From positions 1,120,001 to 1,184,000 of the forward strand of contig OZ245006.1 in NCBI GenBank assembly GCA_965223545.1: a stretch of DNA of 64,000 nucleotides, in the 5' to 3' direction. This stretch comes from Planctomycetota bacterium (GTDB taxonomy: Bacteria; Planctomycetota; UBA1135; UBA2386). Under the pieces are notes generated by a model. The model had not been told where the DNA came from. It saw nothing but the letters and a program-made list of their open reading frames with translations, and searched no databases. Below are positions 5,018 through 64,000 of the stretch, one piece after another. Numbering within the stretch: position 1 is the stretch's first letter; each line of letters starts with the position of its first letter. Position numbers and translations under genes: made by a program.

Positions 5018-5117
5018 GGACACCCCCCCAACGCGCGCAGTTTCTCGCCGATTCGGCCTCCGGTGCCGGCACGCGCTGCCGGTTTCAGAGTCGTCTCCCA
5101 CACCGGAAAGGCCATCG

Positions 5118-5537
5118 ATGCTCTCAACCAAGCGCTTCCCGATCTCCGCACTGCTAACCCTATCGACTGTGTGGCTCTGCACCGCCGCGGTGCCGGCACC
5201 GCCGGCCGACCACGCTCGCGCGGACCGAGCCGCCGCCGTCGCCCTCGATGCCCGGATGGAGACCGGAATCGGCGTCTGGATCTTGCCCGGTGCCGCGCAA
5301 GTCCCGCTCGGCGCGCTGATTCAGGTGCTCAACGACACCCCCCACACGATCTCCGTCACCATCCGTAACCAAACCACCGGAACTCTCGAGCACAAGGTCG
5401 ACGTCAAGGCCTGGGGGTCGACCTCATGGACGGTTGCGGGCACTGCCGGGGACACCCTCAAGACCGAGGCCAAGCGCGGCTCCCGGCTGCTCGAGGATCA
5501 CGTCCACACCATCGTACTGGACAACAAGGTCCCGTGA
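5118..5537 (+). CDS. Small secreted hypothetical protein, beta-strand-rich
   Basis: N-terminal hydrophobic signal and protein-like composition; fills the gap between two genes. Confidence 0.6.
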   Translation: MLSTKRFPISALLTLSTVWLCTAAVPAPPADHARADRAAAVALDARMETGIGVWILPGAAQVPLGALIQVLNDTPHTISVTIRNQTTGTLEHKVDVKAWGSTSWTVAGTAGDTLKTEAKRGSRLLEDHVHTIVLDNKVP

Positions 5538-5559
5538 GCACGGTGCACGGCTCCGGCGA

Positions 5560-7902: not shown

Positions 7903-7941
7903 GGCGAGAACCTCCGCCGAGATCCTAAGTGCCCGGCGACC

Positions 7942-44667: not shown

Positions 44668-47118
44668 GTGGCCGGTGCCGTCGCCGCCCGCCTCGCAATC
44701 CTGCGCCGAGCGGACGCCCTCTACGAGCTGAGCGCTCGTCTCGAAGACGGCACGGTACGCGTGTCGGCAACGCCACTCGCCGCGGACCACGCGTTGGCCC
44801 TCTGCTGGGCGCGCATGGCCCGGGTCCGCACCATCGATTCGGCCCTGCTGCACGATCTGCGCGCCGTCGCCCGGGATACGCGCATCGATCCCCTCGCCGA
44901 GCCTCCGACCCTCCAACCTCTGCGCGTCGCGCCCCCACCACCGCCACACCGACCGACCGCCGCCAATCCGCGCGCCTACAAGGGCACCAAGGACCGACCG
45001 CCCAAACCGAGGCGTCCCGATCCGCAGGACCTGCGGCCTCACCTCTGCTCCACCGTGCATCAGGACCGACTGTTCGCCGCAGTCTGCGCAGAGCTCGACG
45101 CGACCGTGGTCGATGCCGGGCCGGAGTTCCGCGACGCACCCGCCGGCTTCCGCCGCGAGCTGGCGTGGCTGCTGCGGGACGCACCGGAGGCGGCGCGAGT
45201 GCGCGCCGCGTACTGGAGCCTCGATCTCGACAGCGACACCGCGCTGCGCGCGCTGCTCGCGCTCACCCTGGCCTGCCACGGCGCTCCGGCGGCACTCGAC
45301 TGGAGCCGCGTGCTGCCGTTGATGGAACCCGGCGACCGCACCCCGATCCTCGCCCGCGCACTGGCAGCGCATGCCATCGAGGCACTGCCGCCGCCAGTTG
45401 CCGACCACAGTCTCGCCGCCGCGGTGGCAGCGTGTTCCGGACCGGCAGTCGACGCCCGGCGCGACTATGTGATTGCCTGCCTGCGGCGCGGCGATGACCT
45501 GCAGGCTGTCGTGGCGGGCTTCGCGCTCGCCGATGCCCATCTGCCGGAGCACGAGTTCACCGGCCCCCCGGCACCACCGGCGGCGGCGACTGCGATCGCG
45601 ACGATCCCCACCACCCATCTGGACGTGCTTGCCCCCCTCCGGCTCTGGCAGCAGTGCGGCTCGCGCCCGGAGCTGATCGAGGTCATCGCCGGCACCGACT
45701 GGAACAGGCTGACGCCCGACGCCGGCCGCCGATTGACGGAAGTCCTGCGGCACCCCCCGGCGCGGCGCGGAGTCGAGGCGGAGCTGGTGCAGGCCGTGAT
45801 CGACACGCCCCGTTCGCACCAAACCAAAGCCGTCGGGATCCTCTGGGACATCGTCGAGTTCTGCCGAGACACCCGCCATTTCCAAGGCGCGCTCGGCATC
45901 GGGCTCGAGGCGATGCGCGCGGTGTGCGAGCCCCCCGCCCCCACCGGCGGCCACGGCAGCTGGCCGATCGAGCGCCTCGCGCTGCTGCACGGCTCCGGCC
46001 GCGCCGACTTCGCCGCGCTGCCGGCGAGTGGCTGGCGCGCCCTGGACGCAGCGTCTGCCCGCCGCAACGACGCCGTCTGCATCGGCGCCGGCCTCCGTGC
46101 GCTGGGCGACGCCTGCGCCGATCTGGTGCGCCGGGGATTGGCCGAGCACCCGTCGCCGTTGTTGCGCGCAGCGCGCACGCTCGGCTTGCTGGCTCCACCG
46201 TACGCGGAGCTGCTGATCGAGCAGGCGATGCAGCATCCGGTGTGGTGCGACGCCGCGTCGATCGGTCTGCAAGAGCTGCTCGAACGGCTTCCCGACCCCG
46301 CGGTCACCGGCGGTTTCAACCCGGTGCCACGCCGCCTGCGCGAGTACCGAGCGGGCAAACGGTCGCTGTCGCCGGCGCAGCTCGAACGCGACACCGCGCG
46401 GGTGCGCGCCGCCTGGCCTGCCGTGGTGCTGCACGCGCTGCACCATCACTGCACGCGGGCGCTGGCCGAGTCCGCCCTCGGCGAGCACGCCGACCGCGCG
46501 TTCTCCGACGAGCGCCTGGCCCACGCGGTGTTGCTGCACGCCGAGACGGAAGAGTCCCGGCGCGCCCTGCGCCGCGCGTTGCGCCGGTACGCAGAGGACA
46601 ACTCCGCCGGAACCGAACGGCACCCGGCCAATGTCCAGTGGCTGCGCCGTCACCCGCGGGTCGACGCCACCCTGTGGACGCGCGGTGTGGTGCTGGAGGA
46701 GACGCTGCCGGATGGGCGATCGGTCCGCATCGCCATCGAACGGGATCCACTCGAGGCCCTGCGGCTCGGCACGCACGTCGGCAGCTGCTTCGGCCTCGGC
46801 GGCGCCTACAACCACTCCGCCATCGCCGTCGCGCTCGACATCAACAAGCAGGTCGCCTTCGCGCGCGACGCGGACGGCACCTTCATCGCGCGCCAGATCG
46901 TCGCCATCACCGACGAGGACCGGCTGCAGTGCCTGGCGGTCTACCCGCTGGCCACCGGCCCGGAGCTGCGCCGGTTGTTCCAGCGGTGGAACCGACAGCT
47001 GGCCGACGCGCTCGACCTGCCACTGGCGCCGGCCAAGGGCGACGTGCCCCGCGTCGAGCTCCTGGTCGCCGAGTCGTGGTGGAACGACGGCGTCTGGTAC
47101 CCGAAGGTATCGCCGTGA
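44668..47118 (+). CDS. Large hypothetical protein (816 aa) with a structured-looking C-terminal domain
   Basis: Long ORF with native codon pattern that fills the operon gap and has a GTGA overlap with tsaD. C-terminal motif: GSCFGLGG...ALDINKQV...ARQIV. Confidence 0.75.
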   Translation: MAGAVAARLAILRRADALYELSARLEDGTVRVSATPLAADHALALCWARMARVRTIDSALLHDLRAVARDTRIDPLAEPPTLQPLRVAPPPPPHRPTAANPRAYKGTKDRPPKPRRPDPQDLRPHLCSTVHQDRLFAAVCAELDATVVDAGPEFRDAPAGFRRELAWLLRDAPEAARVRAAYWSLDLDSDTALRALLALTLACHGAPAALDWSRVLPLMEPGDRTPILARALAAHAIEALPPPVADHSLAAAVAACSGPAVDARRDYVIACLRRGDDLQAVVAGFALADAHLPEHEFTGPPAPPAAATAIATIPTTHLDVLAPLRLWQQCGSRPELIEVIAGTDWNRLTPDAGRRLTEVLRHPPARRGVEAELVQAVIDTPRSHQTKAVGILWDIVEFCRDTRHFQGALGIGLEAMRAVCEPPAPTGGHGSWPIERLALLHGSGRADFAALPASGWRALDAASARRNDAVCIGAGLRALGDACADLVRRGLAEHPSPLLRAARTLGLLAPPYAELLIEQAMQHPVWCDAASIGLQELLERLPDPAVTGGFNPVPRRLREYRAGKRSLSPAQLERDTARVRAAWPAVVLHALHHHCTRALAESALGEHADRAFSDERLAHAVLLHAETEESRRALRRALRRYAEDNSAGTERHPANVQWLRRHPRVDATLWTRGVVLEETLPDGRSVRIAIERDPLEALRLGTHVGSCFGLGGAYNHSAIAVALDINKQVAFARDADGTFIARQIVAITDEDRLQCLAVYPLATGPELRRLFQRWNRQLADALDLPLAPAKGDVPRVELLVAESWWNDGVWYPKVSP

Positions 47119-48140
47119 CGCTGGTGCTGGGCATCGAGACCTCTTGTGACGAGACCGCGGCCGCCGTGGTGCGCGACGGCACCGACGTGCTCAGCAACGT
47201 GATCCACTCGCAGACCGCGCTGCACGAGCGCTACCGGGGCGTCGTACCGGAGGTCGCGAGTCGCTCGCACACCGAGCGCATCACCGGCATCATCGAAGGC
47301 GCGGTGGCGGACGCCGGCGTCGACCTGCACGCGCTCGACGCCATCGCCGTCACCCACCGCCCCGGCATGATCGGCTGCCTTCTGGTCGGCATCTCCAGCG
47401 CGCAGGCGTTGAGCTGGTGGTTGGACCGCCCGCTGATCGGCGTCGATCACATCCGCGCGCACGTACACGCCGCGTTCATGGTGCAGCCCGCGCTCCCGCT
47501 CCCCTGCCTCTCGCTGGTCGCCTCGGGCGGTCACACCGCGCTCTATCTGGTCGACGCCGAGCGCAACGTGCACCGCATCGGCCGCACCCGCGACGACGCC
47601 GCCGGCGAGGCCTTCGACAAGGGCGCCGCCCTGCTCGGCCTGCCCTACCCGGGGGGGCCCGCCATCGAGGCAGCGGCCGCGGATGGCGATCCGAAGGGCC
47701 TGGCCCTGCCGCGCCCGATGCTGCGCGACGGCTCGCACGACTTCTCGTTCAGCGGCGTCAAGACCGCGCTGCTGTACCACCTCCGCGGCAGCGGCGTCGA
47801 ACGCCCGATGCCGGAGCTGGGCCAGGCGCAGATCGCGGATCTGGCGGCGGCCTACCAGGCCGCGATTCTCGACGTGCTGGTGAGCAAGCTGGCGCGCGCG
47901 GCGGAGGCGCACTCCGCCGCCAGCGTGGCGATCGGCGGCGGCGTCGCCTGCAACGGCGAGCTGCGCCGGCGGATCGCCGCCCACCCGGGGTTGGGCGAAC
48001 GCGAGATCGTGTTTCCGCCCATGTCGCTGTGCTCCGACAACGGCGCCATGGTCGCCGGTCTCGGCACCGAGCTGCTGCGCCGTGGCACCATCGCCGACCT
48101 GACGCTGCGGCCGGTCGCCACCTCGCGGAGAGGACCGTGA
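47115..48140 (+). CDS. tsaD: tRNA N6-adenosine threonylcarbamoyltransferase
   Basis: LGIETSCDET, GVVPEVASRSH, H-x3-H, SGGHT, DDAAGEAFDK, FSFSG-x-KT and SDNGAM. Confidence 0.96.
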   Translation: MTLVLGIETSCDETAAAVVRDGTDVLSNVIHSQTALHERYRGVVPEVASRSHTERITGIIEGAVADAGVDLHALDAIAVTHRPGMIGCLLVGISSAQALSWWLDRPLIGVDHIRAHVHAAFMVQPALPLPCLSLVASGGHTALYLVDAERNVHRIGRTRDDAAGEAFDKGAALLGLPYPGGPAIEAAAADGDPKGLALPRPMLRDGSHDFSFSGVKTALLYHLRGSGVERPMPELGQAQIADLAAAYQAAILDVLVSKLARAAEAHSAASVAIGGGVACNGELRRRIAAHPGLGEREIVFPPMSLCSDNGAMVAGLGTELLRRGTIADLTLRPVATSRRGP

Positions 48141-48916
48141 CTCCCGGATTCTCGCTCCGCGATCTGCTGGCCCAGGTCGCGCGCGGTGACCTCGGCGTCG
48201 ACGATGCGCTGGCCTCGCTGGCGGAGGCCCGCACCGGCGCCGTTTCGGACTTCGCCCGCATCGACCACGACCGGGCCCAGCGCTGCGGCACCCCCGAGGT
48301 CGTGTTCTGCCAGGGCAAGCAGCCGGCGGACGCGGTGGCGATCGCCGCCGAGATCTTGCAGCGCGCGCCGCGCGTGCTGCTGACCCGGGTCGAGGACGCC
48401 CACTGGCGGGCGCTGGCCCAGCGCTGGCCCGACGCGCGGCACGACCCGCGCGCCCGCTGCGCGATCATCGGGCCGCCACCGAGGGCCAGCGGCCTGGTGG
48501 CGGTGCTCGCCGCCGGCACCGCCGATCTGCCGGTCGCCGCCGAGGCCACCGTGACGGCCACGGCGTTGGGGGCCGAAGTGCGCACTTTCCACGACGTCGG
48601 CGTCGCCGGCCTGCACCGGCTGCTGGAACCGCTGGAGGAGATCCGCCGGGCGCGGGCCATCGTCGCCGTCGCCGGCATGGAAGGCGCCTTGCCGTCGGTG
48701 GTCGCCGGTCTGGTGCGCGTGCCGGTCATCGCGGTGCCGACCAGCGTCGGCTACGGCGCCAGCTACGGCGGCCTCGCCGCCCTGCTGGCGATGCTCAACG
48801 CGTGTGCCGCCGGCGTGGCCGTGGTCAACATTGACAACGGCTTCGGCGCCGGCTATCTCGCAGCGCAAATCAACCGTCAGACGCGCGCTGAGGCGCGCCG
48901 CGAAGACCGATCTTGA
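48137..48916 (+). CDS. larB: LarB/NCAIR-mutase-like (PurE-related) protein
   Basis: [38 protein letters not shown] and [10 protein letters not shown]. Confidence 0.92.
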
Positions 48917-50049
48917 CCTCCACGACGCGCAAGCCCGCCCGCCTCGTCCTCGAGGACGGCACTGTCCAGCACGGCCGCTCCTTCGGCGCCCCGGTCGACT
49001 CGATCGGTGAGCTGGTGTTCAACACCTCCATCACCGGCTACCAAGAGATCCTCACCGACCCGTCGTACCGCGGGCAGACCGTCTTGTTGACGCAGCCCCA
49101 CATCGGCAACTACGGCGTCAACAGCGAGGACGAGGAGTCGCTCCGCCTCTGGCTGTCGGGCCTGGTGGTGCGCGAGGCGTGCCACCGCGCCAGCAACTTC
49201 CGCGCGGGCGGCGAGCTGTCCGATTACCTGGTGCAACACGGCGTCCCCGGCATCGAAGAAGTCGACACGCGCATGCTCACGCGGCGGGTGCGCACCGGCG
49301 GCGCGCTCCGGGTGCTGATCACCGAGGACATGAGCACACCGGAAGAAGAGCTGCTCGAGCGCGTGCGCAGCGCGCCCTCGATCAGCGACGAGGACCACGT
49401 CAAGGCGGTCACCTTGGACGCGCCGACACCTTGGACCAAGGGCCACGAGTCCCCGTTCTCGGTGCCGGTGCCCGACACCGGCGAAACGCGTTACTCGCTG
49501 GTCGCCTACGACTTCGGCGCCAAGCGCAACATCCTGAGGTCGCTGGTGGCCACCGGCTTCGACGTCACCGTGGTGCCGGCCGACACTCCCGCCGAGGCAG
49601 TGCTCGAACGCAAGCCCGACGGCGTCTTCCTCAGCAACGGCCCGGGTGACCCGGCGGTCGTCGACTACGCGGTGCGCGCCGTCTCACAGCTGGTCGAGCG
49701 GGTGCCGGTGTTCGGCATCTGCCTGGGCCACCAGATTCTCGGTCAGGTGTTCGGCGCCAAGACCTTCAAGATGAAGTTCGGCCACCACGGCGGCAACCAA
49801 CCGGTGATGGACCTGACCACCGAGAAGGTCGAGATCACCTCGCAAAACCACTCGTTCGCCGTCGATCCGGGCGCGCTGCCGGATCGGGTCGAAGTCACCC
49901 ACAAGAACCTCAACGATCAGACCGTAGAGGGGCTGCGGCACGTCGAGCTGCCGGTGTTCTCGGTGCAGTACCACCCCGAGGCGGCTCCGGGCCCACACGA
50001 CTCGCTCTACCTGTTCGAGCGGTTCCGCGACGTCATCCGCGGCGCCTGA
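48913..50049 (+). CDS. carA: Carbamoyl-phosphate synthase small subunit
   Basis: [36 protein letters not shown] and [12 protein letters not shown]. Confidence 0.97.
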
Positions 50050-50055
50050 CGCACA

Positions 50056-51657
50056 TCAGCGCATCGCCGCCTGTTCGTGCAGGCGCTTGTCGTAGAACTC
50101 GAGAAAGAACGGGTTCCACCGCCGCTCTTCCCGCGCGAACTGGTCCATGTCGTCGAGCTCTGAGAAGTAGTCCAGCTCCGACCATTCGTCGGGGAAGTCG
50201 ACCGGCGACACCCGCAGCGCGTTCTTGCGCTCCTCCATCAGGATCAGCGGGTGCAACACGACGTCTTCGCCGCTTTCGATCCGCATCAGCACCGACCGGC
50301 TGCGCCGCAGAACGAACACGCGCCGCTCCTCGTTGCGCTTGAACATGGACGCCATGTGCACCGAGAACACGTCGCTCTTGGTGGTCACCAGGTCCATGAA
50401 CTGCTGCTTGATCTCCGGGTTGCCCAAGTTCTCGAACTCCGGCAGCTGCTCGAGGTCGGCGACCTCCTCGAAGATCTTGCGCCGCACCGTGGCCCCCAGG
50501 TCGAAGTCGGCGTAGGTCGCCTCGTCGCCGTAGCCGCCGTCGCCGGTGTCTTCGACCTCCTCGTTGCGGTAGCGCAGGATCGCCTCGATCACGCTGTCGG
50601 GCACCTCGTGCGTCGAGAACAGGCTGCGCAGCACGGGGCGCGACGCGGTGTTGATGTTGATCCGCACGCCGAGCCCGATCGGCTGCTCGGGCGGCGCGTT
50701 GGGGTCGACCGGCTCGGGCACCGGCGGCGCCGCGGCGGCGGGGTCGGCATTGCCGTCGGGACCGGCGGGGTTCTGTCCCGGCACGCCGGGGTCCATCACC
50801 TGCGACGTGTAGACGGTCAGCACCGACTCGAGGCCGGGGATCAAGCGCCCATCGAGCACCTTGTTGTAGAAGATGTCCTCGGTGACCTCGCGCAGCAGCA
50901 GCAAGTCGTCCAGGTGCAGCATCGGCGTCTGCTCGACGCCGAGCTCCTGGTCGCTCTTCAGCGGCGGCCGGGGCATGGCCTCGGTCCGGCCCCGCCCCTC
51001 CATCCACTCGACGATGTAGCGCGCCAGATCGTGGCCGTGGGTCGAGCTCAGGTCGAACTCGGTGCCCTCGCGCATCGCGTCGATCAACCGCACCAGACGC
51101 TCCCGCGAGGCCTCGGCGAACTCGCGATCGGGGCTCAGCAGGGTGAGGATGTTGAACTTGCGGTTCTCGTCCTCGACCCACACGTAGGTGGTGAGGTCGT
51201 CGTCGGCGTAGCCGGTCGGCTCGTACCAAGAATCCTGGCTGCTGTCGGCGGCACTCGCGCCCTCACCGGCACCCTCGCCCTCGCCCTCGCCGGGGAGCCC
51301 GCTCTCCCCACCCGGAGCCATCCCCGGCAGCGCGTTGCCGAGATCCCCCATCCCCGGCGCGGCCCCCAAGCCGGCGCCGCTGCCCGCGGCGCTGGCCATC
51401 AGGTCGTCGACCAGCTGCTCCTCGACCTGGCTGAGCGTGTAGGTCATGTGGTTCTGCATGCGCGCGAGCAGGGCCTCGTTCTCGCCGCTCAAGCGCGCCA
51501 GGCGGGCGGTGACCACCAGCTCGGCGACCAGGACGTAGAGCAGCACGACGAAGATCAGCACCATGATCAGCGCGATGCCGCGCTGGGACCGCGCGACTGC
51601 GCGGCCGGGCATCGGCCGCGGTCTGCAGTCAGCGCCGAGGCGTTCACCCGGCGCCAT
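50056..51657 (-). CDS. gspK: Type II secretion minor pseudopilin GspK-like protein
   Basis: Prepilin site QRG|IALIMVL, VEDENRKFNI, ININTAS-x-x-VL and TTKSDVF. The start is uncertain (51612-51702). Confidence 0.85.
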   Translation of the reverse strand: MAPGERLGADCRPRPMPGRAVARSQRGIALIMVLIFVVLLYVLVAELVVTARLARLSGENEALLARMQNHMTYTLSQVEEQLVDDLMASAAGSGAGLGAAPGMGDLGNALPGMAPGGESGLPGEGEGEGAGEGASAADSSQDSWYEPTGYADDDLTTYVWVEDENRKFNILTLLSPDREFAEASRERLVRLIDAMREGTEFDLSSTHGHDLARYIVEWMEGRGRTEAMPRPPLKSDQELGVEQTPMLHLDDLLLLREVTEDIFYNKVLDGRLIPGLESVLTVYTSQVMDPGVPGQNPAGPDGNADPAAAAPPVPEPVDPNAPPEQPIGLGVRININTASRPVLRSLFSTHEVPDSVIEAILRYRNEEVEDTGDGGYGDEATYADFDLGATVRRKIFEEVADLEQLPEFENLGNPEIKQQFMDLVTTKSDVFSVHMASMFKRNEERRVFVLRRSRSVLMRIESGEDVVLHPLILMEERKNALRVSPVDFPDEWSELDYFSELDDMDQFAREERRWNPFFLEFYDKRLHEQAAMR

Positions 51658-51736
51658 GGGATCTTGGCTGGTGGTCGTCACGAGCGTGGAGGTCGCCAGC
51701 ATACAGACGGCCGCGCGCGCTTGGGTCTTCCCGGAA

Positions 51737-53233
51737 TCAGTCGCCGCCGCCCAGGCCGTGCAGGCCCTCGGGGCCGAAGAGGATCGTCGGGGTGATGTGG
51801 AACTCGAGCGTGGTCTTGCGGGTCTGCTCGGAGGTCGAGCGGAACAGGAAGCCGAGGATCGGAATGTCTCCGAGGATCGGGAACTTGGTCTCGGTCTGGA
51901 AGGTGCTCTCGCTGACCAGGCCGCCGATCACGGTGGTCTTGCCGTCGGACAAGTGCACCGAGGTCATCGCCTCGCGGCTGGCGATGATCGGCGTCGGCAC
52001 CGGGGACGTGTTGGCGAAGCTGTTGACCGCCGAGACACTGGCGAACACCTGGAGAATCACCGTCTCGGTGCCGGCGATCACCGGCCGGATGTTGAGGTTG
52101 ATGCCGACCGGCTTGAACACGATGCTCGCCGAGACGTTCTGCCCCGACGACGTGATCCGCGCCTGCGGATAGGGCAGGTCGGTGGTCAGGGTCACCGACG
52201 CCAACCCGCCGTTGCGCACGGTCAGGCGCGGGTTGCTGACGACGTCCGCCGCGCCACGCGATTCGAGCACCTGCAGCTGGGCATCGAGTTGCCAGCTGTC
52301 GTGGATGCCCCCGAGCGAGAACAGGCCGCGGCCCTCGCTCGAGCCCGCGCCCACCACCGGCGGCGCCAACGGAAACCGCGAGATCAAGCTCTCGATCAGC
52401 TTGCCGGTCGAGGTGTTGGTCAGGGTCGGGCCGGAGATCGGCTGGCCCTTGTCGTCGCGGAACTGGTCGATGCCGATGCCGAAGAAGCTGTCGCTCGAGT
52501 ACTCGACGACCTTCACGTCGATCTCGATCTGCGGAACGTTGGAGAAGAACAGGTTGAGGGCGGCCTCGAACGCGCGCAGACCGGCAGGCGCCGCGGTCAC
52601 CAGAATCAAGCTGTTGCCCGGCCAAGTCTGCGGCACGACCGCGGTCTGGTTGACCTGGGCACGGATGTCGACGGCCTCGGGGTGCTCGAATCCGTCGAGG
52701 AACAAGAACTCGACCACGTGCTCCCCCAGCTGGCGGCCGAGGATGCTCTGCCCCGCGTGTCCGCCGCCGGCCAGGAAACGCTGCTTGCGCGGCGCTTGGT
52801 CCTGCTGCGGCTCGGTCAGCAAATTGAGCAAGACCTCGCCGGAGCGCTCGGCGATGAAGTACTGCTTGGCCACGCGCCCGTCGGCCCGCACCGAGATGTG
52901 GGAGCCGAACTCGGCGCGGAGCCGGGCGGCTTCGGTGTCCTGCCCAACGCCGTCCTGGGCGCCACCGGGCTCGGGCCACGCCGCCTCGACCGGCACCGGC
53001 CAAGCCGCCGCCACCGCGTCGACGTCGCCCGGCGCGGCGCCGGCGAGCGCCTGGCTCTGCGGATCGACGGTCGCCCGCACGCGGTAGCCCGCGCTGACTG
53101 GCTCGACCGGCACCACTTGGCAGGCTGCCAGCACGCAGCCGCACAACAGCACTGCCAGGCGGTGAGGCACAGCCGCAGCGCGCGGCGCGCCAATTCGGCG
53201 TTCGGGCCCTGCCTGCGCGTCAGGTACCGACAT
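51737..53233 (-). CDS. Short secretin (type II/III secretion GspD family), lipoprotein
   Basis: Lipobox LAAC, NSLILV, PQIEIDVKVVE, SNPRL, TVIGGL and PILGDIPILGFLFRS. Confidence 0.88.
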   Translation of the reverse strand: MSVPDAQAGPERRIGAPRAAAVPHRLAVLLCGCVLAACQVVPVEPVSAGYRVRATVDPQSQALAGAAPGDVDAVAAAWPVPVEAAWPEPGGAQDGVGQDTEAARLRAEFGSHISVRADGRVAKQYFIAERSGEVLLNLLTEPQQDQAPRKQRFLAGGGHAGQSILGRQLGEHVVEFLFLDGFEHPEAVDIRAQVNQTAVVPQTWPGNSLILVTAAPAGLRAFEAALNLFFSNVPQIEIDVKVVEYSSDSFFGIGIDQFRDDKGQPISGPTLTNTSTGKLIESLISRFPLAPPVVGAGSSEGRGLFSLGGIHDSWQLDAQLQVLESRGAADVVSNPRLTVRNGGLASVTLTTDLPYPQARITSSGQNVSASIVFKPVGINLNIRPVIAGTETVILQVFASVSAVNSFANTSPVPTPIIASREAMTSVHLSDGKTTVIGGLVSESTFQTETKFPILGDIPILGFLFRSTSEQTRKTTLEFHITPTILFGPEGLHGLGGGD

Positions 53234-54692
53234 AGCTCCGCGGGCCTTGCACGATGCGAGGCGTGATGTGGAAATCGAGCGTGGTGCGCGACTGCGTCGT
53301 CGAGGTCGAGCGAAACAGATAGCCGAGGATCGGGATGTCGCCGAGGATCGGCACCTGTGCGGTCTGCTCGAACTCCTGGGTACTGACCAGTCCGCCGATC
53401 ACCGTGGTCTTGCCGCTGGCGACGTGTACCGACGTCACCACCTCGCGGTTGGACACGATCGGCGTGTTGACCGGCTGCGTGCTGGCAAAGCTCGTCACCA
53501 CCGAGATGTTGGCGTAGATCTGCAGGATCACCGTCTGCGTGCCGGCGATCACCGGCCGGATGTTGAGCGTCACGCCGACCGGCCGGAACTTGATGTTCGA
53601 GGTCACGTTCTGGCCGGAGGACGAGATGCTGGCGTCCGGGTACGGGAACTCGGTCCGGGTCACGATCGACGCCAAGCCGCCATTGCGCACCGCCAGCCGG
53701 GGGTTGCTGATGATGTCGGCCTCGCCCTGCGCCTCCAGCGCCTGCAGGTTGGCGGTCAGCTGCCAGCTGTCGTGGATACCGCCGAGCGCGACGATGCCGC
53801 GGTCGGCGATGCTGGCACTGCCGACCAGGGGCGCCGCCAGCGGGAACTGCGCCACGATCTCCTGCACCAGCTTGTTGTCGGACAGGTTGGTGAGGGTCGG
53901 TCCCGGCGGCACGGTGCTCACCGCCGGTGAGATGCCGAACGCGAGCGTGTCGCTGGTGCTGTACTCGACGACCCGCACCTCGATCTCGATCTGCGGAATG
54001 CTGCCGAAGAAAAGGTCGAGCGCGTCCTCGAACGCGACCAAACCCGCTTCGGGCGCGGAGACCACGAGGAGGCTGTTGGGCGTGCCGTCCTGCTGCTTCT
54101 CGGGCGCGCCGCTGATCGGCACGTTCTTGGCGGGGTTCGGTCCGCGAATCTGCACGCTGCGCGGCTTCTCGAAGTCGCGGACGAAGAAGATGTCCACCCG
54201 CTGCTCGCCCAACATCTCGGCGAGCACGCAGTCCGCCGCCTCGCCACCGCCGACCGCGACCGGGCCGTAGGTCGCCGGCAGCTTCTCGTGCTCCGGAGTC
54301 GCCAGGTGCTCCGCCGGCGGCCGCAGCAAGTTGAGCAGCATGCGACTGGTCTCGCCGGTGACGAAGTACTGCTTGGTGATGGTGCCGTCGGGAGCGATCA
54401 ACACCGAGGGTCCGAACTTGGCGCGCAGCGCGCTCGCGCGCAGTGGCCCGGTCCGGGCCGGATCCTGCGGACCGCGGTCAGTGGATTGCGCCGGCGGCAC
54501 CGCCGCCGGCGCCTCCCCCCAAACGCGCTCGGCGAGGCCGTGCACGGCGGGCACCGGCGCGTCGACGGTCGCCTCGACGTGATGCCGCAACGCCGGAGCG
54601 GGCGAGACGGTACACCCCGGGTGCAGGCACACACCCAGTGCCACCGCCGTCGGCCATCGACCGCGCCACACCCCGCCCATGGTGCGACCCAT
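53220..54692 (-). CDS. Short secretin (GspD family), paralog of the downstream gene, putative lipoprotein
   Basis: LHPGC lipobox-like motif, NSLLVV, PQIEIEVRVVE, SNPRL and PILGDIPILGYLFRS. Confidence 0.88.
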   Translation of the reverse strand: MGRTMGGVWRGRWPTAVALGVCLHPGCTVSPAPALRHHVEATVDAPVPAVHGLAERVWGEAPAAVPPAQSTDRGPQDPARTGPLRASALRAKFGPSVLIAPDGTITKQYFVTGETSRMLLNLLRPPAEHLATPEHEKLPATYGPVAVGGGEAADCVLAEMLGEQRVDIFFVRDFEKPRSVQIRGPNPAKNVPISGAPEKQQDGTPNSLLVVSAPEAGLVAFEDALDLFFGSIPQIEIEVRVVEYSTSDTLAFGISPAVSTVPPGPTLTNLSDNKLVQEIVAQFPLAAPLVGSASIADRGIVALGGIHDSWQLTANLQALEAQGEADIISNPRLAVRNGGLASIVTRTEFPYPDASISSSGQNVTSNIKFRPVGVTLNIRPVIAGTQTVILQIYANISVVTSFASTQPVNTPIVSNREVVTSVHVASGKTTVIGGLVSTQEFEQTAQVPILGDIPILGYLFRSTSTTQSRTTLDFHITPRIVQGPRSYVGT

Positions 54693-54704
54693 TGGCCGAC
54701 GATG

Positions 54705-55112
54705 TTAGGGCGTGCCGTCGTCGGACTCCAGCTGCTCGACGACTGCCTCGGTCAAGTCCGCGACCTCCAGCCCGCGCGCATCCTTGATGTCGCCGTCGCG
54801 GACGACACAGTCGTGCCCCTCGGCCTCGGCCGCTGCCTTGCAGGCGCGCTGGATGCGCTTGTGCATCTTGGCGATCAGCAGCTCGTAGCGCGCGGATCCG
54901 CGCCGCACCCCGTCGGACTTGATGGTGTCGTACTCCGGTGTCTCCTTCTCCACCTTGTCCATCTCGATGGTCGCCGGCCGCGACGTGTTGGACGCCGAGC
55001 CGTGCAGGACCACGGCACCGCTCTTGGTGCCCACCCCCTGCGCGGGAGCGAGGGCGCAGACCAGCGCCAGGGCCATGCCGATCGACACGATTCGAAAAGT
55101 GGGAGCTAACAT
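54705..55112 (-). CDS. Small exported OmpH/Skp-like protein with a shortened coiled-coil
   Basis: Signal peptide ending APAQ; C-terminal I-x3-CK-x-x-A-x3-G-x-D-x-V...DLTEAVVEQL resembles the Skp core. Confidence 0.6.
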   Translation of the reverse strand: MLAPTFRIVSIGMALALVCALAPAQGVGTKSGAVVLHGSASNTSRPATIEMDKVEKETPEYDTIKSDGVRRGSARYELLIAKMHKRIQRACKAAAEAEGHDCVVRDGDIKDARGLEVADLTEAVVEQLESDDGTP

Positions 55113-55200
55113 GGCGGTCGCTTGGGTTGTCTGGGAGCGGGGGTGAATCCCATCGGACACAGCTGAGCGTCAACAGCATCCGGCGAGGGGCAGAAAACCA

Positions 55201-55216
55201 GGCAAGATCAGTGCCT
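55201..55216 (-). promoter_or_regulatory. Sigma-54 (-24/-12) promoter for the skp-like/secretin/secretin/gspK operon
   Basis: The minus strand reads AGGCACTGATCTTGCC, i.e. GG-N10-GC matching TGGCAC-N5-TTGC, about 90 nt upstream of ATG 55112. Confidence 0.8.
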
Positions 55217-55333
55217 CGAGATTCCGCCAATCCCGACCGAACGATGGAACATCTTCCTTAGGAAGGAGTTCTGACTTCCGGCGCGTCTCTGACTTTTTTC
55301 GGTGGCGCATTTCTCGGTGCAGCGGGATCGCGA

Positions 55334-55364
55334 ATTCCGCCACAATCCGCCACGATTCCGCCAC
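55334..55364. promoter_or_regulatory. Three phased direct repeats, AWTCCGCCAC; candidate enhancer (UAS)
   Basis: ATTCCGCCAC at 55334, AATCCGCCAC at 55344 and ATTCCGCCAC at 55355, about 120-150 nt upstream of the -24 box. A fourth near-copy, ATTCCGCCAA, is at 55221. Confidence 0.55.
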
Positions 55365-55420
55365 CCGCGACTGTCGCGGTGCGATCGGTTCTTGGTTGCG
55401 GCCCCGGCCGCGCTGAGGTT

Positions 55421-58400
55421 TCAGGCTCCGCGCTGTGCACGGAGACGATAGCGCGCGCCGCGGCGGCGACCGACGCGCTCGAGGTCGCCGCGCGCCACGA
55501 GGCCGGCCAGGTCGCGCACGGCGGTCCGCGCGCTGACGCCGGAGAGCTGCATGTACTCGGCGCTGGTCAGCTCACCGCGGCTGCGCACCCACTCGAGTGC
55601 CATGGCGCGCCGCCCCTCGATCCCTGGCCCCGGAGTGGGAGCAGCAGGCTCCGCCGGCTCCTCCGACCCCGCCCCGGTCCGCGGCTCGGCGAGGTCTTGG
55701 CGGCCGGGCGGTCGCAGAGACCGCGACCCCTTCACTGGCGTTCCCTTCACCGACGATCCCGCGGCGGTCGCCCCGAGCGGCGACGGTGCGGGGTCTGCAG
55801 ACCGCCGCGCGTCGACGCGGCGCGCCTCCGGAGACGCAGCGGGCGCTTCCCCGTCCAGCACCCCGAGCAGATCTTCGCGACGGACCTGCGGACCGGTCGC
55901 GAGCACCATCGCGCGCAACACCGTGTTGCGCAGCTCGCGGACGTTGCCCGGCCAATCGTGCTGGAACAGCTCGTCGAGGGCGTCGGGATGGAACTCGGCG
56001 GCACTGGTGTAGCCCGCGCGCACCCCCTCGGCGTGGAACCGCGCCACCAGGTCGGGAATCTCCTGCTTGCGCGCGCGCAGAGGCGGCACGGTGATCACCA
56101 TGCCCTGCAAGCGGTAGTAGAGGTCCTCGCGAAAGCGCCCCTCGGCGACCAGCCGCCGCATGTCGCGGTTGGTCGCGGCGATCACGCGCACGTCGACCGG
56201 CACCGGCTCGAGCCCGCCGACGCGGTCGATCTCGCGCTCCTGCAGGACCCGCAGCAGCTTGACCTGCGTCTGCAGCGAGATCTCGCCGATCTCGTCGAGG
56301 AACACCGTGCCGCCGTCGGCGAGCTCGAACTTGCCCACCTTGGCCGCGGTCGCCCCGGTGAACGCGCCCTTCTCGTGGCCGAACAGCTCGGACTGCAGCA
56401 GACTCTCCGACAGCGCCGCGCAGTGCACCTTGACCAGTGGGCCTGCGGCGCGGCGGCTCATGCGGTGGATCAGCTCGGTGAGGACCTCCTTGCCGGTGCC
56501 GGTCTCGCCTTCCAAGAGCACGGTCAGATCGGTCGGCGCCACGCGCTGCAGGGTGCGCAGCACCGCCTGCATGGCCGGGCTGCGGAACACCACGCCGTGG
56601 CTCTCGAGCTCGGCGACGGCCCGCGGCGCCGCCTCCTCGTCGCTCGGCAGCACCGGGCTGCGCATCGCGTCGAACAAGAACTCGGCGCTGGCGGCGGTCT
56701 CGGGGAAGGCGGCCGCCGCGGTGTCGAAACGCAACCGGCCGCTGCCCTCGAACCCACTCGCGGCCAAGCGTTCGAGCTCTTCGCCGATCCGCGCGCGACA
56801 GCGCTCGGCCTCGGCGGCACCGGTGTCGGGCAGACCCGCCCAGAACTCCGCGTCGGCGGCCCGACCGAGCAGCGCCCCGGCCGGCAGTGCGCGCCGCAGC
56901 ACGGAGGCGACGTGCTCGAGCAACCGGCTGAAGCGGCGCGCCCCCAAGCTCTCGGCGAGGCGCCCGCCTTCGGACAGTGCGACCCCGACCAGCGCCACCG
57001 AGCCCCCCGATTCCCGCGCGCTGGACACCTGCTCCGCGATCCGCCGGCGAAAGTAGTCGGCGACGAACGCCCCGGTGTCGAGGTCTTCGACCGCGTGCCG
57101 ATACAGCCGCGCGTTCTCGAGCGCGACCGCTGCCTGGGCGGCGATCGTGGTCAGCAGCTCGAGGTGCACCGGCGGCGGCGTGTGTGCGTCGAACACCAAC
57201 ACCAGCGCCCCGCGACGGCGCGCGGCGAGCACCAAGGGCAGCACCAGGAGCGACCCCGCACCCGCCCAAAGGGCGTGCGGGGCGTCGCGGTCCAACACCA
57301 CACTGCACGGGCCGACCGCCGCCAGCACCGGCACCAGGTCCGGATCCTCGCGGTCGAGCTCGCCGTCGACCGCCCCGTAGCCCCGCACGGTGCCGCGGTC
57401 CGACTCGCGCAACACGGCGCACACGCGATCGGCATCGCTGTGCTGCGCGCAGAAACCGATCGCCCGGGTGACGATCTCGGCGGGGTCGAGCCGCTCGGTG
57501 ACGTCCTGGATCCCCCGGTTGAGGTGGCGGAGCTCCTGCATGCGGTCCTGCAGGTCATCTGCCATCAGGTTGAACGTGCGCGTCAACCGGCCGAGCTGCC
57601 CCCGCTCATCGCTCCGCACCCGCACGCCGAAGTCGCCGCGCCGCAGCGCCTGGGCGCCCCGTTCCAGCCGCTCGAGCGGCTTGGTGAGCCGCGCGGTGAT
57701 CACCGAAGCCAACAACACGGACAATGCCAGCAGCAGGCAGCCCACCGCGGCGAAGTACTCTCGCACCGGCACCGGCCCCAGGCGCAGCGGAAGCTCGGCT
57801 TGGCGATCCACGTCGACCACGCCCAACAGCGCGCGCGGCGTCTCCTCGAGGTCGCGCAGCACGTCGTAGACCGCCACCCAGGGCGCCGTGTCGGTCTCGT
57901 GTCGCGTGACCGTGGACTGGCCGTGATCGAGCGCCACCGCGAGCGCCTCGCGCCGGGCCTCCATCATCGCCGGCTGCACCGCGGTGTGCTCGAGTTGGCG
58001 CCGGCCCAGATCGGCGTCCGCCACCGCCAGCGGGTAGCCCCTGGTGTCGCAGAGCACGATGCCCCGGCCCGGCGCGAGGCCGCCGAGCAGGCCCTGGTCG
58101 AGGGGCCGCGCCACCGACAGCGAGCATCTGCCGCCGCCGGCCGCCTCGACCTCCCAACGCACGCCGAGCAGCGGGATCCCCCAGGTCACGTAGAACCCCG
58201 GCACCCGCCGCAGCGGGGTCTCCGCCGCGCGCAGGGCGGGATCACCGACGTAGGCGTGCACGCCGACCCCGTCCTCGGCGCTCACCAGCTCGAAGCGCAG
58301 GAAGCCGCCGTCCCACTCGGGCGGCTTCTGGCTGTCCATGATCGCCACCAGAGCATCGTGCAGGGCATCCCAGTCGACGGCGCCGTCCTCGCCGACCGGG

Positions 58401-61174
58401 GCGCCGGCCACCTCGGCGGCGAGCGGCTCGATCCACTGCCTGGCCGAGTCCAGCAGTTCGTTCTGCTCGTCCTGCAGCTGACGGGTCGCCGCCGACATCG
58501 CCTGCTGCATGGTGCCCTGTCGCTGCTCGTCGTGGCCACTCTCCAACACCGACACCAGGACCAGCGACAGGACGACGAGGGGCACGACCGTGCTGACGAT
58601 GAGCACGGCGATCAGCCGCGCGCGCAGGCTGCCGAGCACGCCGAGCAGATCGCCGAACAGCAACAGCAGCAATGGCGCTGACAGCAGGCACAGCACCGCT
58701 CCGAGGCGATGCACCCACCGCCGGTACTCGGTGTGGCCGGGATCGTCGAGGAACGCCGCCAGCACGGCGTCCGACCAGCCCTCGCCGACCAGCGGAAAAT
58801 AGGCCTCGTAGGCCCGCTCCGGCCCGGTGTCGACGGGCCGGAGCTCGAACGGTGTCGCTGCCAGGCGCCGCTCGAGCCCGCGCGGGAGGTTCATCGGCAC
58901 GCGCGCCACCGTGGTCTCTTGCAGCACACCGCCGCGGTAGATGGCGAACTCCGCTCCGCGCATCTGCTCCAGACGCCCGCGGGCCATCGCCACCGAACGG
59001 TTGTCCGCCGTGATCTCCAGCGGCGAATCAGGGGGCTCGACCCGCACCTGCGGCTTGGAGGCGCGGAACGTCGCCGAGCGAAAACGGATCGGGTAGCTCG
59101 CGGTGGTACTGCGCAGGCGAATCTCGCGCACCACCGCCGTGCTGTCGAGCTCGACCTCGTAGCCCAGCGTGATGCGCTGCTCCTGATCCTGGTCCTCCCA
59201 CCGCAACGCGACGCTGGCCGCCGCCGCGCTGGGCTCCGGGTCGATGTTGTGGGCCGCGAGCTCGAAGAACATCGACTCCTGGTGGGTGAAGGCGATGACC
59301 TTCGGCGGCACGGAGTCACCGGCAAAGTGCAGCTCGACCTCGCAGACCCGCTCCCCCACCAGCGGCAACGGCTTGTCGGCGCCGGGGAAGTCGGCGCGGT
59401 AGAACAGAAAGAGCCGCTCGAAGGACTGCGCGCGATCCCGCGCGATCGACAACACCCGCTCTTGACCCGGCGCGAGGAGCACGCCCGCGTCCTCGGGGTA
59501 CGGACCCCGCAAGCCGGTCTCCACGCCGCCCAACGAGGCCTGGCCCAGGTCGATCGCGCGCCCGACCGCGTCGCTCGCCGACGCCGTACTCAGCCCGACC
59601 AAGCCGACACCGTCGGCGCGCAGCGGAGTCAATCCCAGCGACTGCAGCGGCGCGGACAGCTCGAGGCGCACGGTGGTCATGTCGCGCTCGGGATGCCCCA
59701 GCGCAAACGCCGGAATCCACGGCCGACTGATCGGCAGCTCCTCGACGACCGGGTCCTCCTGGCCGGCGTACTGCAGCACGCAGCGCAGCGCCGCCGCCGA
59801 GTTGTCGACGCCGAAGGCCGGCGCCCACAGCACGACGTTGAGCACCGGCCCGCCCAGCGGCTCGCGGAACGCGATCCGCTCGAGCTCGTCGCCGCTCAGC
59901 GGCAGCCAGTACGGCCGCACCGGAAAGCCATCGACGGGGTAGTGGCGGACCGGCAACAGCTCCCCCGCGCCGACCAAGTCGGCGAGGGGCACGTGGGTCA
60001 CCACCTGCTTGCGCGGCACGGACTCGCCCGACAGCAGCCGCAGCAGCGGAGCATCGCGCTCGCCGCCTCGGTAGCTGCCGAGCGTTCCCTGCTCCATCGC
60101 CGGCAGCGCGGCGCGCACCCGCTCGGTCACCAAGCGCAGCTCGGTCTGCCGCGACAGCTCGCGCCCGTGCGTGAGCGCCGCGGGCAGCAGCAAGCCCAAC
60201 AACAGCAACAGACCGCCCGCGACCCGACACCAGCGGCCGAGCGCCGGCCGGCCGCGCACCGCGCGCCGCCCGACCCAGAGAACCACGACCGCGACGACGA
60301 CGGCGAGCAGCGCCCACGCCGCGCGCAGGAAGACGACGGTCCAGGTCGACCACCAGCTCGGCCGACTCTGGCCTGCGGCGGTCAACGGGGGCGCACCCGC
60401 GAAGCGCAACAGGCGCAGCTGTCGCACGTCGTCGACCGGGTTGGTGCCGGTCCAGGTGATGTAGTTGTAGCGGTCCGGATCGTCGCAGTCGTCGACCGCC
60501 AGGTTGAAGGCCACGCGCTCCGTGCCGGGCTCGAAACCGGGCAGACTGTGGAACGGGATCGCGGCCTCGAAGTCGTAGCCGCGTCCCTGACGCTCCAACG
60601 CCGCCACCCGGACTCCGGTCAACGCCGCTCCGCCGTAGTGCGGTGCCTCGCCGACCGCGCCCGACCACGCCACCAGCCCCCACGGCCGGCTGGGGTTGAG
60701 TGGCATCAGGAAGATCTGCAGGTCGTCCGCGTTGAAGCGGTGGCCGGCCTCCTCGCCCGCGTCGTTGTCGGGGTCGACATCCAAGAACAGCTCGACCGCG
60801 TCCCCTTGGTGCCAGTAGGACGACTTGCGCTGTCGCACCAGCTGGTCGTCGCGCACGCTGCCGGCCACGTAGAGGTGCGCCGCGTCGTAGCTCAGCCAGA
60901 AGGTCGCCGACAGGTCCTCGGGGCCGCGCCACGCGCCACCGCGCGAGTGCGCCACCCGGTCGCCGGCAGCGAGCTCCATCTTCCACGCCGCCGACCACTC
61001 ACCGTCGGTCAGATCGCCGTCGATCTGGACCGCCGCCGACTGCCACGGCAATCCTTTGGGCGGGGCCTGTCGCGGACTCTGCGCCGCGCCCTGCGCCGCC
61101 GAGGGGACAGCCAGCCCCAGAGCGAGCAGAGCGCGGGCGGCGCACCGGAACCAGGGAGCGTAGAGTGGATTCAT
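55421..61174 (-). CDS. Membrane-bound sigma-54-dependent activator: CBM9-like / 5 TM / HAMP / GAF / degenerate GGDEF / AAA+ / wHTH
   Basis: CBM9/DOMON-like: IDGDL-x-[29 protein letters not shown]...[23 protein letters not shown]+: [55 protein letters not shown]. Confidence 0.9.
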
Positions 61175-61263
61175 CGACTGCGTGCACCCGCGGCGGGCGG
61201 TCGGAGCCCCCCGGGCTGGACCACTGCGCGGGGTGCGCGCGGCTCCGAGCACGCATCATAGCG

Positions 61264-61313: not shown

Positions 61314-64000
<2,687 letters not shown>

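Follow-up and report, generated by a model that had tools for sequence, protein, structure and literature searches.

A candidate membrane-integral sigma-54 activator adjoining a Skp-like, secretin and GspK-like operon in Planctomycetota

The stretch of DNA analyzed here (64,000 nucleotides from a Planctomycetota bacterium genome; referred to below as the window) contains at 50056-61174 a cluster of genes encoding a giant sigma-54 activator (bacterial enhancer-binding protein, bEBP), a Skp-like protein, two secretins and a GspK-like minor pseudopilin of a type II secretion system (T2SS). It is rather likely, on the sequence evidence, that the activator binds its own repeats and switches on the genes for the Skp-like protein, the secretins and the GspK-like protein in response to a periplasmic cue. 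Comparison with related loci supports the view that activator, promoter and operon form one conserved unit. The cue is predicted to be external and possibly sugar-related, a glycan signal being plausible. The genes and DNA elements concerned were as follows.

55421-61174, minus strand: sigma-54 activator gene, 1917 residues, stop codon included in the range, start taken at ATG 61174
55355-55363, 55344-55352 and 55334-55342, minus strand: phased direct repeats TGGCGGAAT / TGGCGGATT / TGGCGGAAT, presumed enhancer, ~120-150 bp upstream of the -24 element
55221-55229, minus strand: fourth copy of TGGCGGAAT, 5 nt upstream of the -24 GG
55202-55215, minus strand: sigma-54-type promoter core GGCAC-N5-TTGC, GGCACTGATCTTGC, with GG at 55214-55215 and GC at 55202-55203
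54705-55112, minus strand: secreted Skp/OmpH-like protein, 135 residues, with signal peptide and short helical arms (Pfam, profile and fold), ATG at 55112
53220-54692, minus strand: secretin 1, 490 residues, N3-like region and secretin domain (Pfam Secretin, E 6.5e-40)
51737-53233, minus strand: secretin 2, 498 residues, paralogue of secretin 1 (Pfam Secretin, E ~1e-40)
50056-51702, minus strand: GspK-like minor pseudopilin, 548 residues (NCBIfam, Pfam and PDB profile)

These elements had been listed in the initial annotation, made from the sequence of the window alone, and all were found again at these positions on the one strand.

Conservation of the gene order

Public genomes were scanned with an alignment of the GspK-like protein (A1), which gave 80 loci, almost all from metagenome-assembled genomes named Planctomycetota bacterium. 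Synteny was counted in the 53 of these 80 gspK-like loci that had at least 8.4 kb of upstream sequence. Promoters were compared in 47 intergenic regions, each running from the activator stop to the Skp-like start, and activator motifs were compared in 15 aligned orthologues. The loci behind the synteny and co-variation counts belong to related genomes and do not represent independent events. A scan of genome contigs with the single protein secretin 1 found no relative; the alignment-based scan succeeded.

The recurring gene order was pnp, activator, skp-like, secretin, gspK-like. Sixteen of the first 20 loci had the activator next to the Skp-like, secretin and gspK-like genes, one was cut by a contig end and three were without the activator. 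In the set of 53 loci a secretin was present in 48, the activator in 45 and the Skp-like gene in 44, with all three present in 41. The linkage of these genes, which the initial annotation had put forward from one genome, therefore recurs in 41/53 related loci. Three of the 53 had a secretin but no adjacent activator, and four had no detectable Skp-like gene. Five of the 53 were without a secretin; four of them (L044, L050, L083 and L098) had pnp just upstream of gspK-like, and the fifth (L079) had no other match. The GspK-like gene was found in 40/41 genomes of the same family and order. As it also persists beside pnp where the other genes are missing, it is the most stable member of the neighborhood.

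Further from the window, 86 of the 301 genomes sampled from the phylum had a match to the N-terminal sensor half of the activator, in many cases within reading frames of 1800-2050 residues. Among 20 loci from other families a secretin lay beside the activator in 10, and of these 10 six had a Skp-like match and three a GspK-like match.

Promoter and repeats

The intergenic region between the activator and skp-like genes is 308 bp long. The promoter core lies within AGGCACTGATCTTGCC at 55201-55216, in GG-N10-GC / TGGCAC-N5-TTGCW context, on the right strand and 5' of the gene, and transcription is expected to start near 55190. Taken from a single sequence, the evidence of the promoter and repeats is weak, and the case therefore rests on context and comparison. 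The best GG-N10-GC match reached at least 9 of 11 consensus positions on the forward strand of 30/47 orthologous intergenic regions, on the reverse strand of 1/47 and in 2.3% of mononucleotide shuffles. Most of the remaining regions contained GGxCC-N5-TTGCT. The element was mostly located 40-100 nt 5' of the skp-like start codon. The excess of forward over reverse matches is in keeping with the sigma-54 promoter proposed in the initial annotation.

The three phased repeats are spaced by 11 and 10 nt. When the regions were aligned on the promoter element, nearly all had a TGGC(G/C)(G/A)A(A/T)-type motif directly beside -24, in either orientation, with more copies upstream. Searching the 8.1-Mb genome for TGGCGGAAT with at most one mismatch gave 1498 sites, and the four copies at 55221-55363 were the sole cluster of at least three sites within 200 bp. 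The motif was not enriched across the window at the same tolerance (15 sites against 10.9 expected), so that its clustering alone is special.

The class of repeat co-varied with residue x of an S-x-RT motif in the C-terminal DNA-binding domain of the adjacent activator. With x = P the repeat was TGGCG(A/G)A in 8/10 loci, and with x = A in 3/4. With x = H it was TGGCC(A/G)A in 16/26, with 5 ties. TGGCGCA was found in 2/2 loci with x = R and TGTCCGA in 1/1 with x = Q. This is what would be expected if the C-terminal domain reads the repeats, with the counts overstating the number of independent events.

A scan for terminators flagged 55200-55216, which has a 5-bp stem. A terminator at this position was rejected, since the GG and GC are conserved and the stem is not. 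A separate GC-rich palindrome, GCGGCCGGGGCCGC, lies at 55398-55411 on the minus strand, 10 nt past the activator stop and without a T run, and may be a hairpin ending the activator mRNA. In L062 and L089, which have no adjacent activator, the sequence GGCAAG-N4-CTTGCC (GG-N10-GC) was found ~90 nt 5' of the Skp-like start; the activator of these two loci may be encoded elsewhere.

Domain architecture of the activator

The longest open reading frame (ORF) for the activator extends over 55421-61252 from GTG 61252 (1943 residues). The signal-peptide-like sequence begins at ATG 61174, which is therefore probably the start. Orthologues are 1830-1990 residues long and have generic public names such as 'sigma 54-interacting transcriptional regulator'. 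By hydropathy the signal peptide is followed by five predicted membrane helices, at about residues 289, 325, 835, 864 and 1150. The following modules were assigned.

60440-61024, minus strand: CBM9-like module, residues 51-245, predicted periplasmic, after the signal peptide (Pfam CBM9_1)
58700-60157, minus strand: beta-rich periplasmic domain A, residues ~340-825 (~485 residues), between membrane helices 2 and 3 (AlphaFold model)
57770-58561, minus strand: dCache ligand-binding domain (domain B), residues ~872-1135 (~260 residues), between membrane helices 4 and 5 (Foldseek and VIA)
56756-57700, minus strand: HAMP, GAF and degenerate GGDEF-like modules, residues 1159-1473, cytoplasmic (Pfam)
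55829-56590, minus strand: Sigma54_activat AAA+ module and lid (AAA_lid_14), residues 1529-1782 (Pfam)
55439-55603, minus strand: C-terminal winged-helix-type DNA-binding domain, residues 1858-1912 (Pfam)

The CBM9, domain A and dCache modules are predicted to lie outside the membrane, and HAMP and everything following it inside. The CBM9_1 match in Pfam had an E-value of 1.9e-13 and a score of 51.2 bits against a cut-off of 23.4. The two domains that follow were examined in an AlphaFold (AF2) model of residues 336-1145, built with 15 orthologues and having a mean predicted local distance difference test score (pLDDT) of 84. For domain A the VIA matches were middling: Z 10.2 for AziU3/U2, and, among jelly-roll carbohydrate-binding modules (CBMs), Z 8.4 for CBM8 and 8.2 for CBM29 and CBM15. 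The VIA list was dominated by the dCache domain, hence middling matches only, and the likeness of domain A to jelly-roll carbohydrate-binding modules is suggestive, no more.

The dCache domain matched chemoreceptor dCache domains in Foldseek with E-values from 1.5e-8 to 1e-5. The VIA scores were Z 12.2 for Tlp3 and ~11.8 for TlpA and TlpC; to 4xmq, at Z 12.2, the root-mean-square deviation was 4.7 over 217 residues. In the model the domain has a double PAS-like fold on a long helix, and it lies between two predicted membrane helices, ahead of HAMP. The initial annotation had described the protein as carbohydrate-sensing. The CBM9 match and the CBM-like beta domain are on the side of that description, and a glycan cue stays plausible; against it, the sensor nearest to HAMP is the dCache domain, a small-molecule sensor.

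On the cytoplasmic side, HAMP was matched at residues 1159-1210 (E 1.1e-10) and GAF_2 at residues 1230-1353 (E 2e-6), both in Pfam. The GGDEF match at residues 1374-1473 (56756-57055) was below the Pfam cut-off, with an E-value of 2.3e-4. The GG(D/E)EF motif is degenerate in 15/15 aligned orthologues and the domain is nonetheless kept.

The AAA+ module was matched to Sigma54_activat (PF00158) with an E-value of 4.8e-69 and 231.8 bits against a cut-off of 20.2. Walker A and the DE of Walker B were present in 15/15 orthologues, and GAFTGA in 14/15, the last having GSFTGA. All three are intact in the protein of the window, where Walker B is part of FLDEIGE. Because these motifs are kept, the protein looks competent for sigma-54 activation, and the whole looks like a competent sigma-54 activator with a transmembrane multi-sensor regulatory part. 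The C-terminal domain was matched to DIP2311-like_C (E 1.5e-6) and HTH_DeoR (E 0.0033) in Pfam and is not the Fis-type helix-turn-helix usual in bEBPs. No equivalog cut-off of NCBIfam was reached by the activator, the best being NifA with 336 bits against 529.

Skp-like protein and secretins

The small gene product following the promoter is, by profile and structural model, a short-armed Skp-like protein. Its match to Pfam OmpH (PF03938) had an E-value of 0.0035 and 18 bits, below the cut-off of 32.4; OmpH was matched at E 0.01 or below in 10/16 orthologues, at best with 1.7e-6. When the alignment profile was searched against the PDB, E. coli Skp was found at E 5e-4. The AF2 model had a pLDDT of 89, and its top six Foldseek matches were all Skp chains, the next being SkpA of the type IX secretion system (T9SS). 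E-values were 0.012-0.37, all weaker than 0.001, with TM to target up to 0.63. A 250-residue ORF at 54478-55230 was also considered as the Skp-like gene and was rejected, being in the wrong frame, having no family match and overlapping the promoter.

Secretins 1 and 2 share 48% identity. The Secretin domain (PF00263) scored 136.9 and 135.5 bits in the two proteins, respectively, against a cut-off of 27.5. The equivalog model for T2SS GspD (TIGR02517) gave 150.6 and 146.9 bits against 351, with alignments covering model positions ~290-600, the C-terminal half, only. Neither N0 nor Secretin_N domains were detected in either protein with Pfam or NCBIfam. Lipoprotein signals were read by eye from the lipobox motif. 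A lipobox-like end of the signal peptide was seen in secretin 2 (VLAAC) and most orthologues, and that of secretin 1 (LHPGC) fits less well; as read from the sequence, lipidation has clear signs in secretin 2 and in most orthologues, and for secretin 1 it is in doubt.

Two secretins were found only in the window, in its closest relative and in two separate lineages; a single secretin is the rule. The pair is, by this comparison, a local duplication, and the twin secretin named in the initial annotation is not a feature of the system.

GspK-like protein and the distant T2SS core

GspK proteins are recognized by a hydrophobic pseudopilin helix that follows a Gly and has no Glu at position +5. 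The GspK-like protein has an N-terminal hydrophobic helix (RGIALIMVL), a Gly-rich insert, a T2SSK_1st-like stretch and an INxNTA helix-hairpin-helix region. The helix reads ...QRG followed by IALIMVLIFVVLLYVLVAEL, is conserved in the A1 alignment and has the form expected of a pseudopilin. The profile of the alignment found XcpX (5vtm) as its best match in the PDB, with an E-value of 0.002 and alignment at two GspK motifs. PF03934 was matched at E 0.01 or below in 15/16 orthologues, and T2SSK_1st in 6/16.

GspK models applied to the whole genome found the gene of the window and, besides it, two weak fragments. Six secretin matches and 18 T2SSE-type ATPase matches were also found in the genome. 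A T2SS core operon is located 470 kb away (C1 ~690300-698500; L113 6315-14523), with the order gspD (761 residues, with Secretin_N), gspE, gspF, gspG and pseudopilins best matching GspH, GspI and GspJ, followed by a convergent serS. The GspI- and GspJ-like genes occupy L113 12731-13423 and 13420-14523. The initial annotation had expected the missing core to be encoded elsewhere, and this gspDEFGHIJ operon agrees with that expectation. No gspK, gspL, gspM or gspC was found in the core operon; in the genome search there was no match to T2SSM, and the single one to T2SSL, a weak one (27.6 bits), lay elsewhere.

The same division was seen in relatives. The order gspG-H-I-J was present in 13/14 of their loci, preceded by gspF wherever the stretch reached that far (7 loci), and no GspK-like match followed gspJ in 14/14 loci within the ~1 kb fetched. 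A GspJ-like gene was found in 39/41 genomes, always at another place than gspK-like. Because the GspK-like gene is the sole one of its kind and the core operon is without gspK, the protein is probably the regular and only cap subunit of the distant T2SS. The alternative pseudopilus tip suggested in the initial annotation is not favored by this arrangement. Upstream of the distant operon no sigma-54 site scoring 10 or more was found on the coding strand, and there is thus no indication that the core is co-regulated.

Layout, flanking genes and source genome

The genes of the cluster are read on the minus strand in the order pnp (61314-63998), activator, skp-like, secretin 1, secretin 2, gspK-like, and G+C is ~70% across the region. 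The gap between skp-like and secretin 1 is 12 nt, secretins 1 and 2 overlap by 14 nt, and 34 nt separate secretin 2 from gspK-like. The terminator scan found no terminator-like site between the operon genes and one weak site inside secretin 1. At the gspK-like end carA (48913-50049) is convergent with the cluster. On the plus strand at 44668-50049 a TsaD-domain ORF, an AIR-carboxylase-family ORF and carA flank the cluster. With pnp, carA, tsaD and the AIR-carboxylase-family gene around it, the neighborhood is one of housekeeping genes.

The source genome (8.1 Mb) belongs to an uncultured Planctomycetota lineage. It contains two rpoN genes (Sigma54_DBD, E 6e-62 and 6e-51) at C1 7705393-7705866 and 411949-412419. 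One of the two has another secretin gene (404030-404602) no more than 8 kb away.

In some of the related loci (L052, L058, L060, L064, L071, L085 and L092-L094) 1.3-5.5 kb of same-strand genes lie between secretin and gspK-like. In L052 this insert spans 4935-9566 and encodes a CarboxypepD_reg-repeat protein of 1156 residues and a UDP-GlcNAc 2-epimerase.

Proposed mechanism and alternatives

The activator would act as a one-component transmembrane regulator in which CBM9, domain A and/or the dCache domain sense the cue. The signal would pass through HAMP, GAF and the dead GGDEF domain and free the AAA+ module, which would then oligomerize on the phased repeats, with the activator also bound at the promoter-proximal site, and remodel sigma-54 RNA polymerase at 55202-55215. 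A transcript from near 55190 would run through skp-like, both secretins and gspK-like. From the operon would come a periplasmic Skp-like chaperone, N0-less secretin pores, which in orthologues are mostly of lipoprotein-like form, and the cap pseudopilin missing from the distant T2SS. T2SS-type export would thereby be gated by the cue, with the pseudopilus tip of the distant T2SS completed. A membrane-held activator could reach the promoter in cis because its gene adjoins its target, and this adjacency together with the site touching -24 suggests action in cis without long-range looping.

Several observations weigh against this account. For a ring assembled on DNA by a bEBP tethered to the membrane, no precedent is known to us and none was found. 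The promoter of the window scores 9/11 consensus positions, short of a perfect match, and GGCAC-N5-TTGC occurs once in the 64-kb window where 0.79 matches are expected by chance, so that its occurrence by itself is not significant. The co-variation has exceptions, with a C-type repeat in one x = A locus and three contrary G-type loci with x = H. The GspK-like protein is below the curated cut-offs of NF037980 (E 1.3e-14, 54.5 bits against 130), PF03934 (T2SSK; 23.0 bits, or 24.4 with neighboring stretches, against 24.2) and PF21687 (18.9 bits against 26.2). In other families the activator has unrelated neighbors in 10/20 loci. Finally, in L044, L050, L083, L096 and L098 gspK-like is the next gene after pnp and the activator, the Skp-like gene and the secretin are all absent from the space between, so the unit from activator to gspK is not indivisible; and in 17/68 loci more than 1 kb of other genes separates secretin from gspK-like. 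Membership of gspK-like in the predicted regulated operon is, across the loci compared, not universal. The self-contained circuit of the initial annotation consequently stands in part: the linkage of activator, promoter and operon is conserved, the genome has no second repeat cluster of this kind and rpoN is present, but gspK-like also occurs without the module.

These last observations bear on an alternative in which the sigma-54 circuit is real and the secretin serves on its own, with no T2SS, as an outer-membrane nozzle, for instance for exopolymer or slime, gspK-like being a mere housekeeping-like neighbor under its own expression. The five loci with gspK-like beside pnp and the 17/68 with inserts fit such an arrangement, as does the L052 insert with its epimerase and CarboxypepD_reg-repeat protein. 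The secretins are without detectable N0 and Secretin_N, the domains that couple to an inner-membrane platform, and the T2SS operon has a full-length GspD of its own. Secretins are reported to be needed for the secretion of exopolymer slime in cyanobacteria and myxobacteria (PMC12475490). In the window, however, gspK-like begins 34 nt past secretin 2 with no terminator-like site between them, the gap is at most 400 nt in 43/68 loci, and no genes for polysaccharide synthesis or export were found in the cluster. A free-standing nozzle is judged unlikely.

A second alternative leaves the promoter to another activator, or takes it to be non-functional, with the giant activator acting on targets elsewhere and the adjacency inherited within a stable housekeeping neighborhood (pnp, carA, tsaD). 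The locus is indeed embedded among housekeeping genes, half of the 20 other-family loci have unrelated genes beside the activator, and three loci keep Skp-like and secretin without an adjacent activator, two of these still having the GG-N10-GC element. Set against this are a repeat cluster that is unique in the genome and separates the activator gene from the promoter, a repeat type that co-varies with a residue in the helix-turn-helix of the neighboring activator, and the conservation of the promoter together with the activator. This second alternative is quite improbable.

Lastly, it is most improbable that the module works in DNA uptake or in the manner of a type IV pilus, with a PilQ-like pore and a ComEA-like helix-hairpin-helix protein: the second PDB match of the A1 profile is ComE operon protein 1 (8dfk, E 0.044), the secretins fit the PilQ model almost as closely as that of GspD, and Pfam T2SSK also matches control genomes without a T2SS, e.g. 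Bacillus, but GspK is the best match throughout (NCBIfam; XcpX 5vtm; T2SSK_1st in orthologues), the pseudopilin-type N-terminal helix is present, and GspK is exactly the subunit that the T2SS operon of the genome is without.

With cue-gated control of the adjacent operon retained as the preferred explanation, a wider statement can be made tentatively, and it is itself rather doubtful: that there is a widespread Planctomycetota class of membrane-integral one-component sigma-54 activators which read extracellular polymer cues directly through CBM9, jelly-roll and dCache domains and fire a promoter beside their own gene without leaving the membrane, and that the one described here gates the T2SS by providing its only cap pseudopilin along with a dedicated Skp-like chaperone and an N0-less lipoprotein secretin pore, the last being a candidate outer-membrane portal of these bacteria for polymer export or uptake.

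Comparison with known systems

No description of the locus, of a membrane-integral CBM9/dCache bEBP or of a sigma-54-controlled secretin in Planctomycetes was found in the literature searched, subscription journals and supplements being outside its scope. Planctomycetota are major degraders of polysaccharides, and the locus offers a testable entry into secretion in their uncultured members. Further points that follow are the split-encoded T2SS cap, the short secretin with a mini-Skp, and a DNA motif whose specificity seems to follow a single residue of the helix-turn-helix.

In the textbook picture sigma-54 activators are soluble proteins that take their input from kinases or small ligands and act from distant enhancers by DNA looping. 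The activator of the window is like those of the NtrC family (NtrC, NifA, NorR and PilR) in its AAA+ module with GAFTGA and Walker motifs, its C-terminal DNA-binding domain and its GG-N10-GC promoter with upstream repeats. It differs from them in having no receiver domain and falling below every equivalog cut-off; in being a predicted membrane-integral protein that has three periplasmic domains besides its signal peptide and five helices; and in having a winged-helix/DeoR-like rather than a Fis-type DNA-binding domain, with one motif abutting -24. A five-helix activator with three periplasmic sensors and a site touching -24 would extend the wiring of sigma-54 systems and raises the question of how a membrane-held AAA+ ring reaches RNA polymerase.

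A periplasmic sensor and a cytoplasmic DNA-binding output are combined in one membrane protein in ToxR, CadC and the hybrid two-component glycan sensors of Bacteroides, the cue of the hybrids being a glycan. These proteins use sigma-70-type activation and OmpR- or AraC-type domains, whereas the activator described here is of the ATP-driven sigma-54 type and must oligomerize.

The GspK-like protein resembles GspK (XcpX, 5vtm/6utu; NF037980; PF03934, PF21687) in its pseudopilin helix, T2SSK_1st-like region and INxNTA motif, and GspK was its best match in every library searched. It departs from GspK in its length of 548 residues with Gly-/Pro-rich inserts, its sub-cut-off scores, and its location 470 kb from gspGHIJ, beside secretins and under a sigma-54-type promoter.

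The Skp-like protein shares the fold of Skp/OmpH (1sg2, 1u2m) according to Foldseek (probability 1.00, E 0.012) and to the alignment profile (E 5e-4). SkpA of the T9SS (8gl8) is an instance of a Skp-like protein that can be attached to an outer-membrane translocon. Compared with Skp, the mature protein of the window is only ~110 residues long, has short arms and is below the Pfam cut-off.

HxcQ of Pseudomonas aeruginosa is a T2SS-type liposecretin whose lipoprotein-like signal dispenses with a pilotin (Viarre 2009, as cited in PMC12475490). A lipoprotein-like N-terminal signal can also be read in secretin 2 of the window and, less surely, in secretin 1. The two secretins differ from HxcQ in that they are ~490 residues long, have no detectable N0 or Secretin_N and are paired with a Skp-like gene.

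All parts of the locus come from known families. What is new is the architecture of a membrane-integral multi-sensor sigma-54 activator, its combination of a winged-helix output with a promoter-abutting site, the conserved pairing of this activator with a mini-Skp and an N0-less secretin, and a T2SS cap gene that is encoded apart from the core and probably regulated apart from it.

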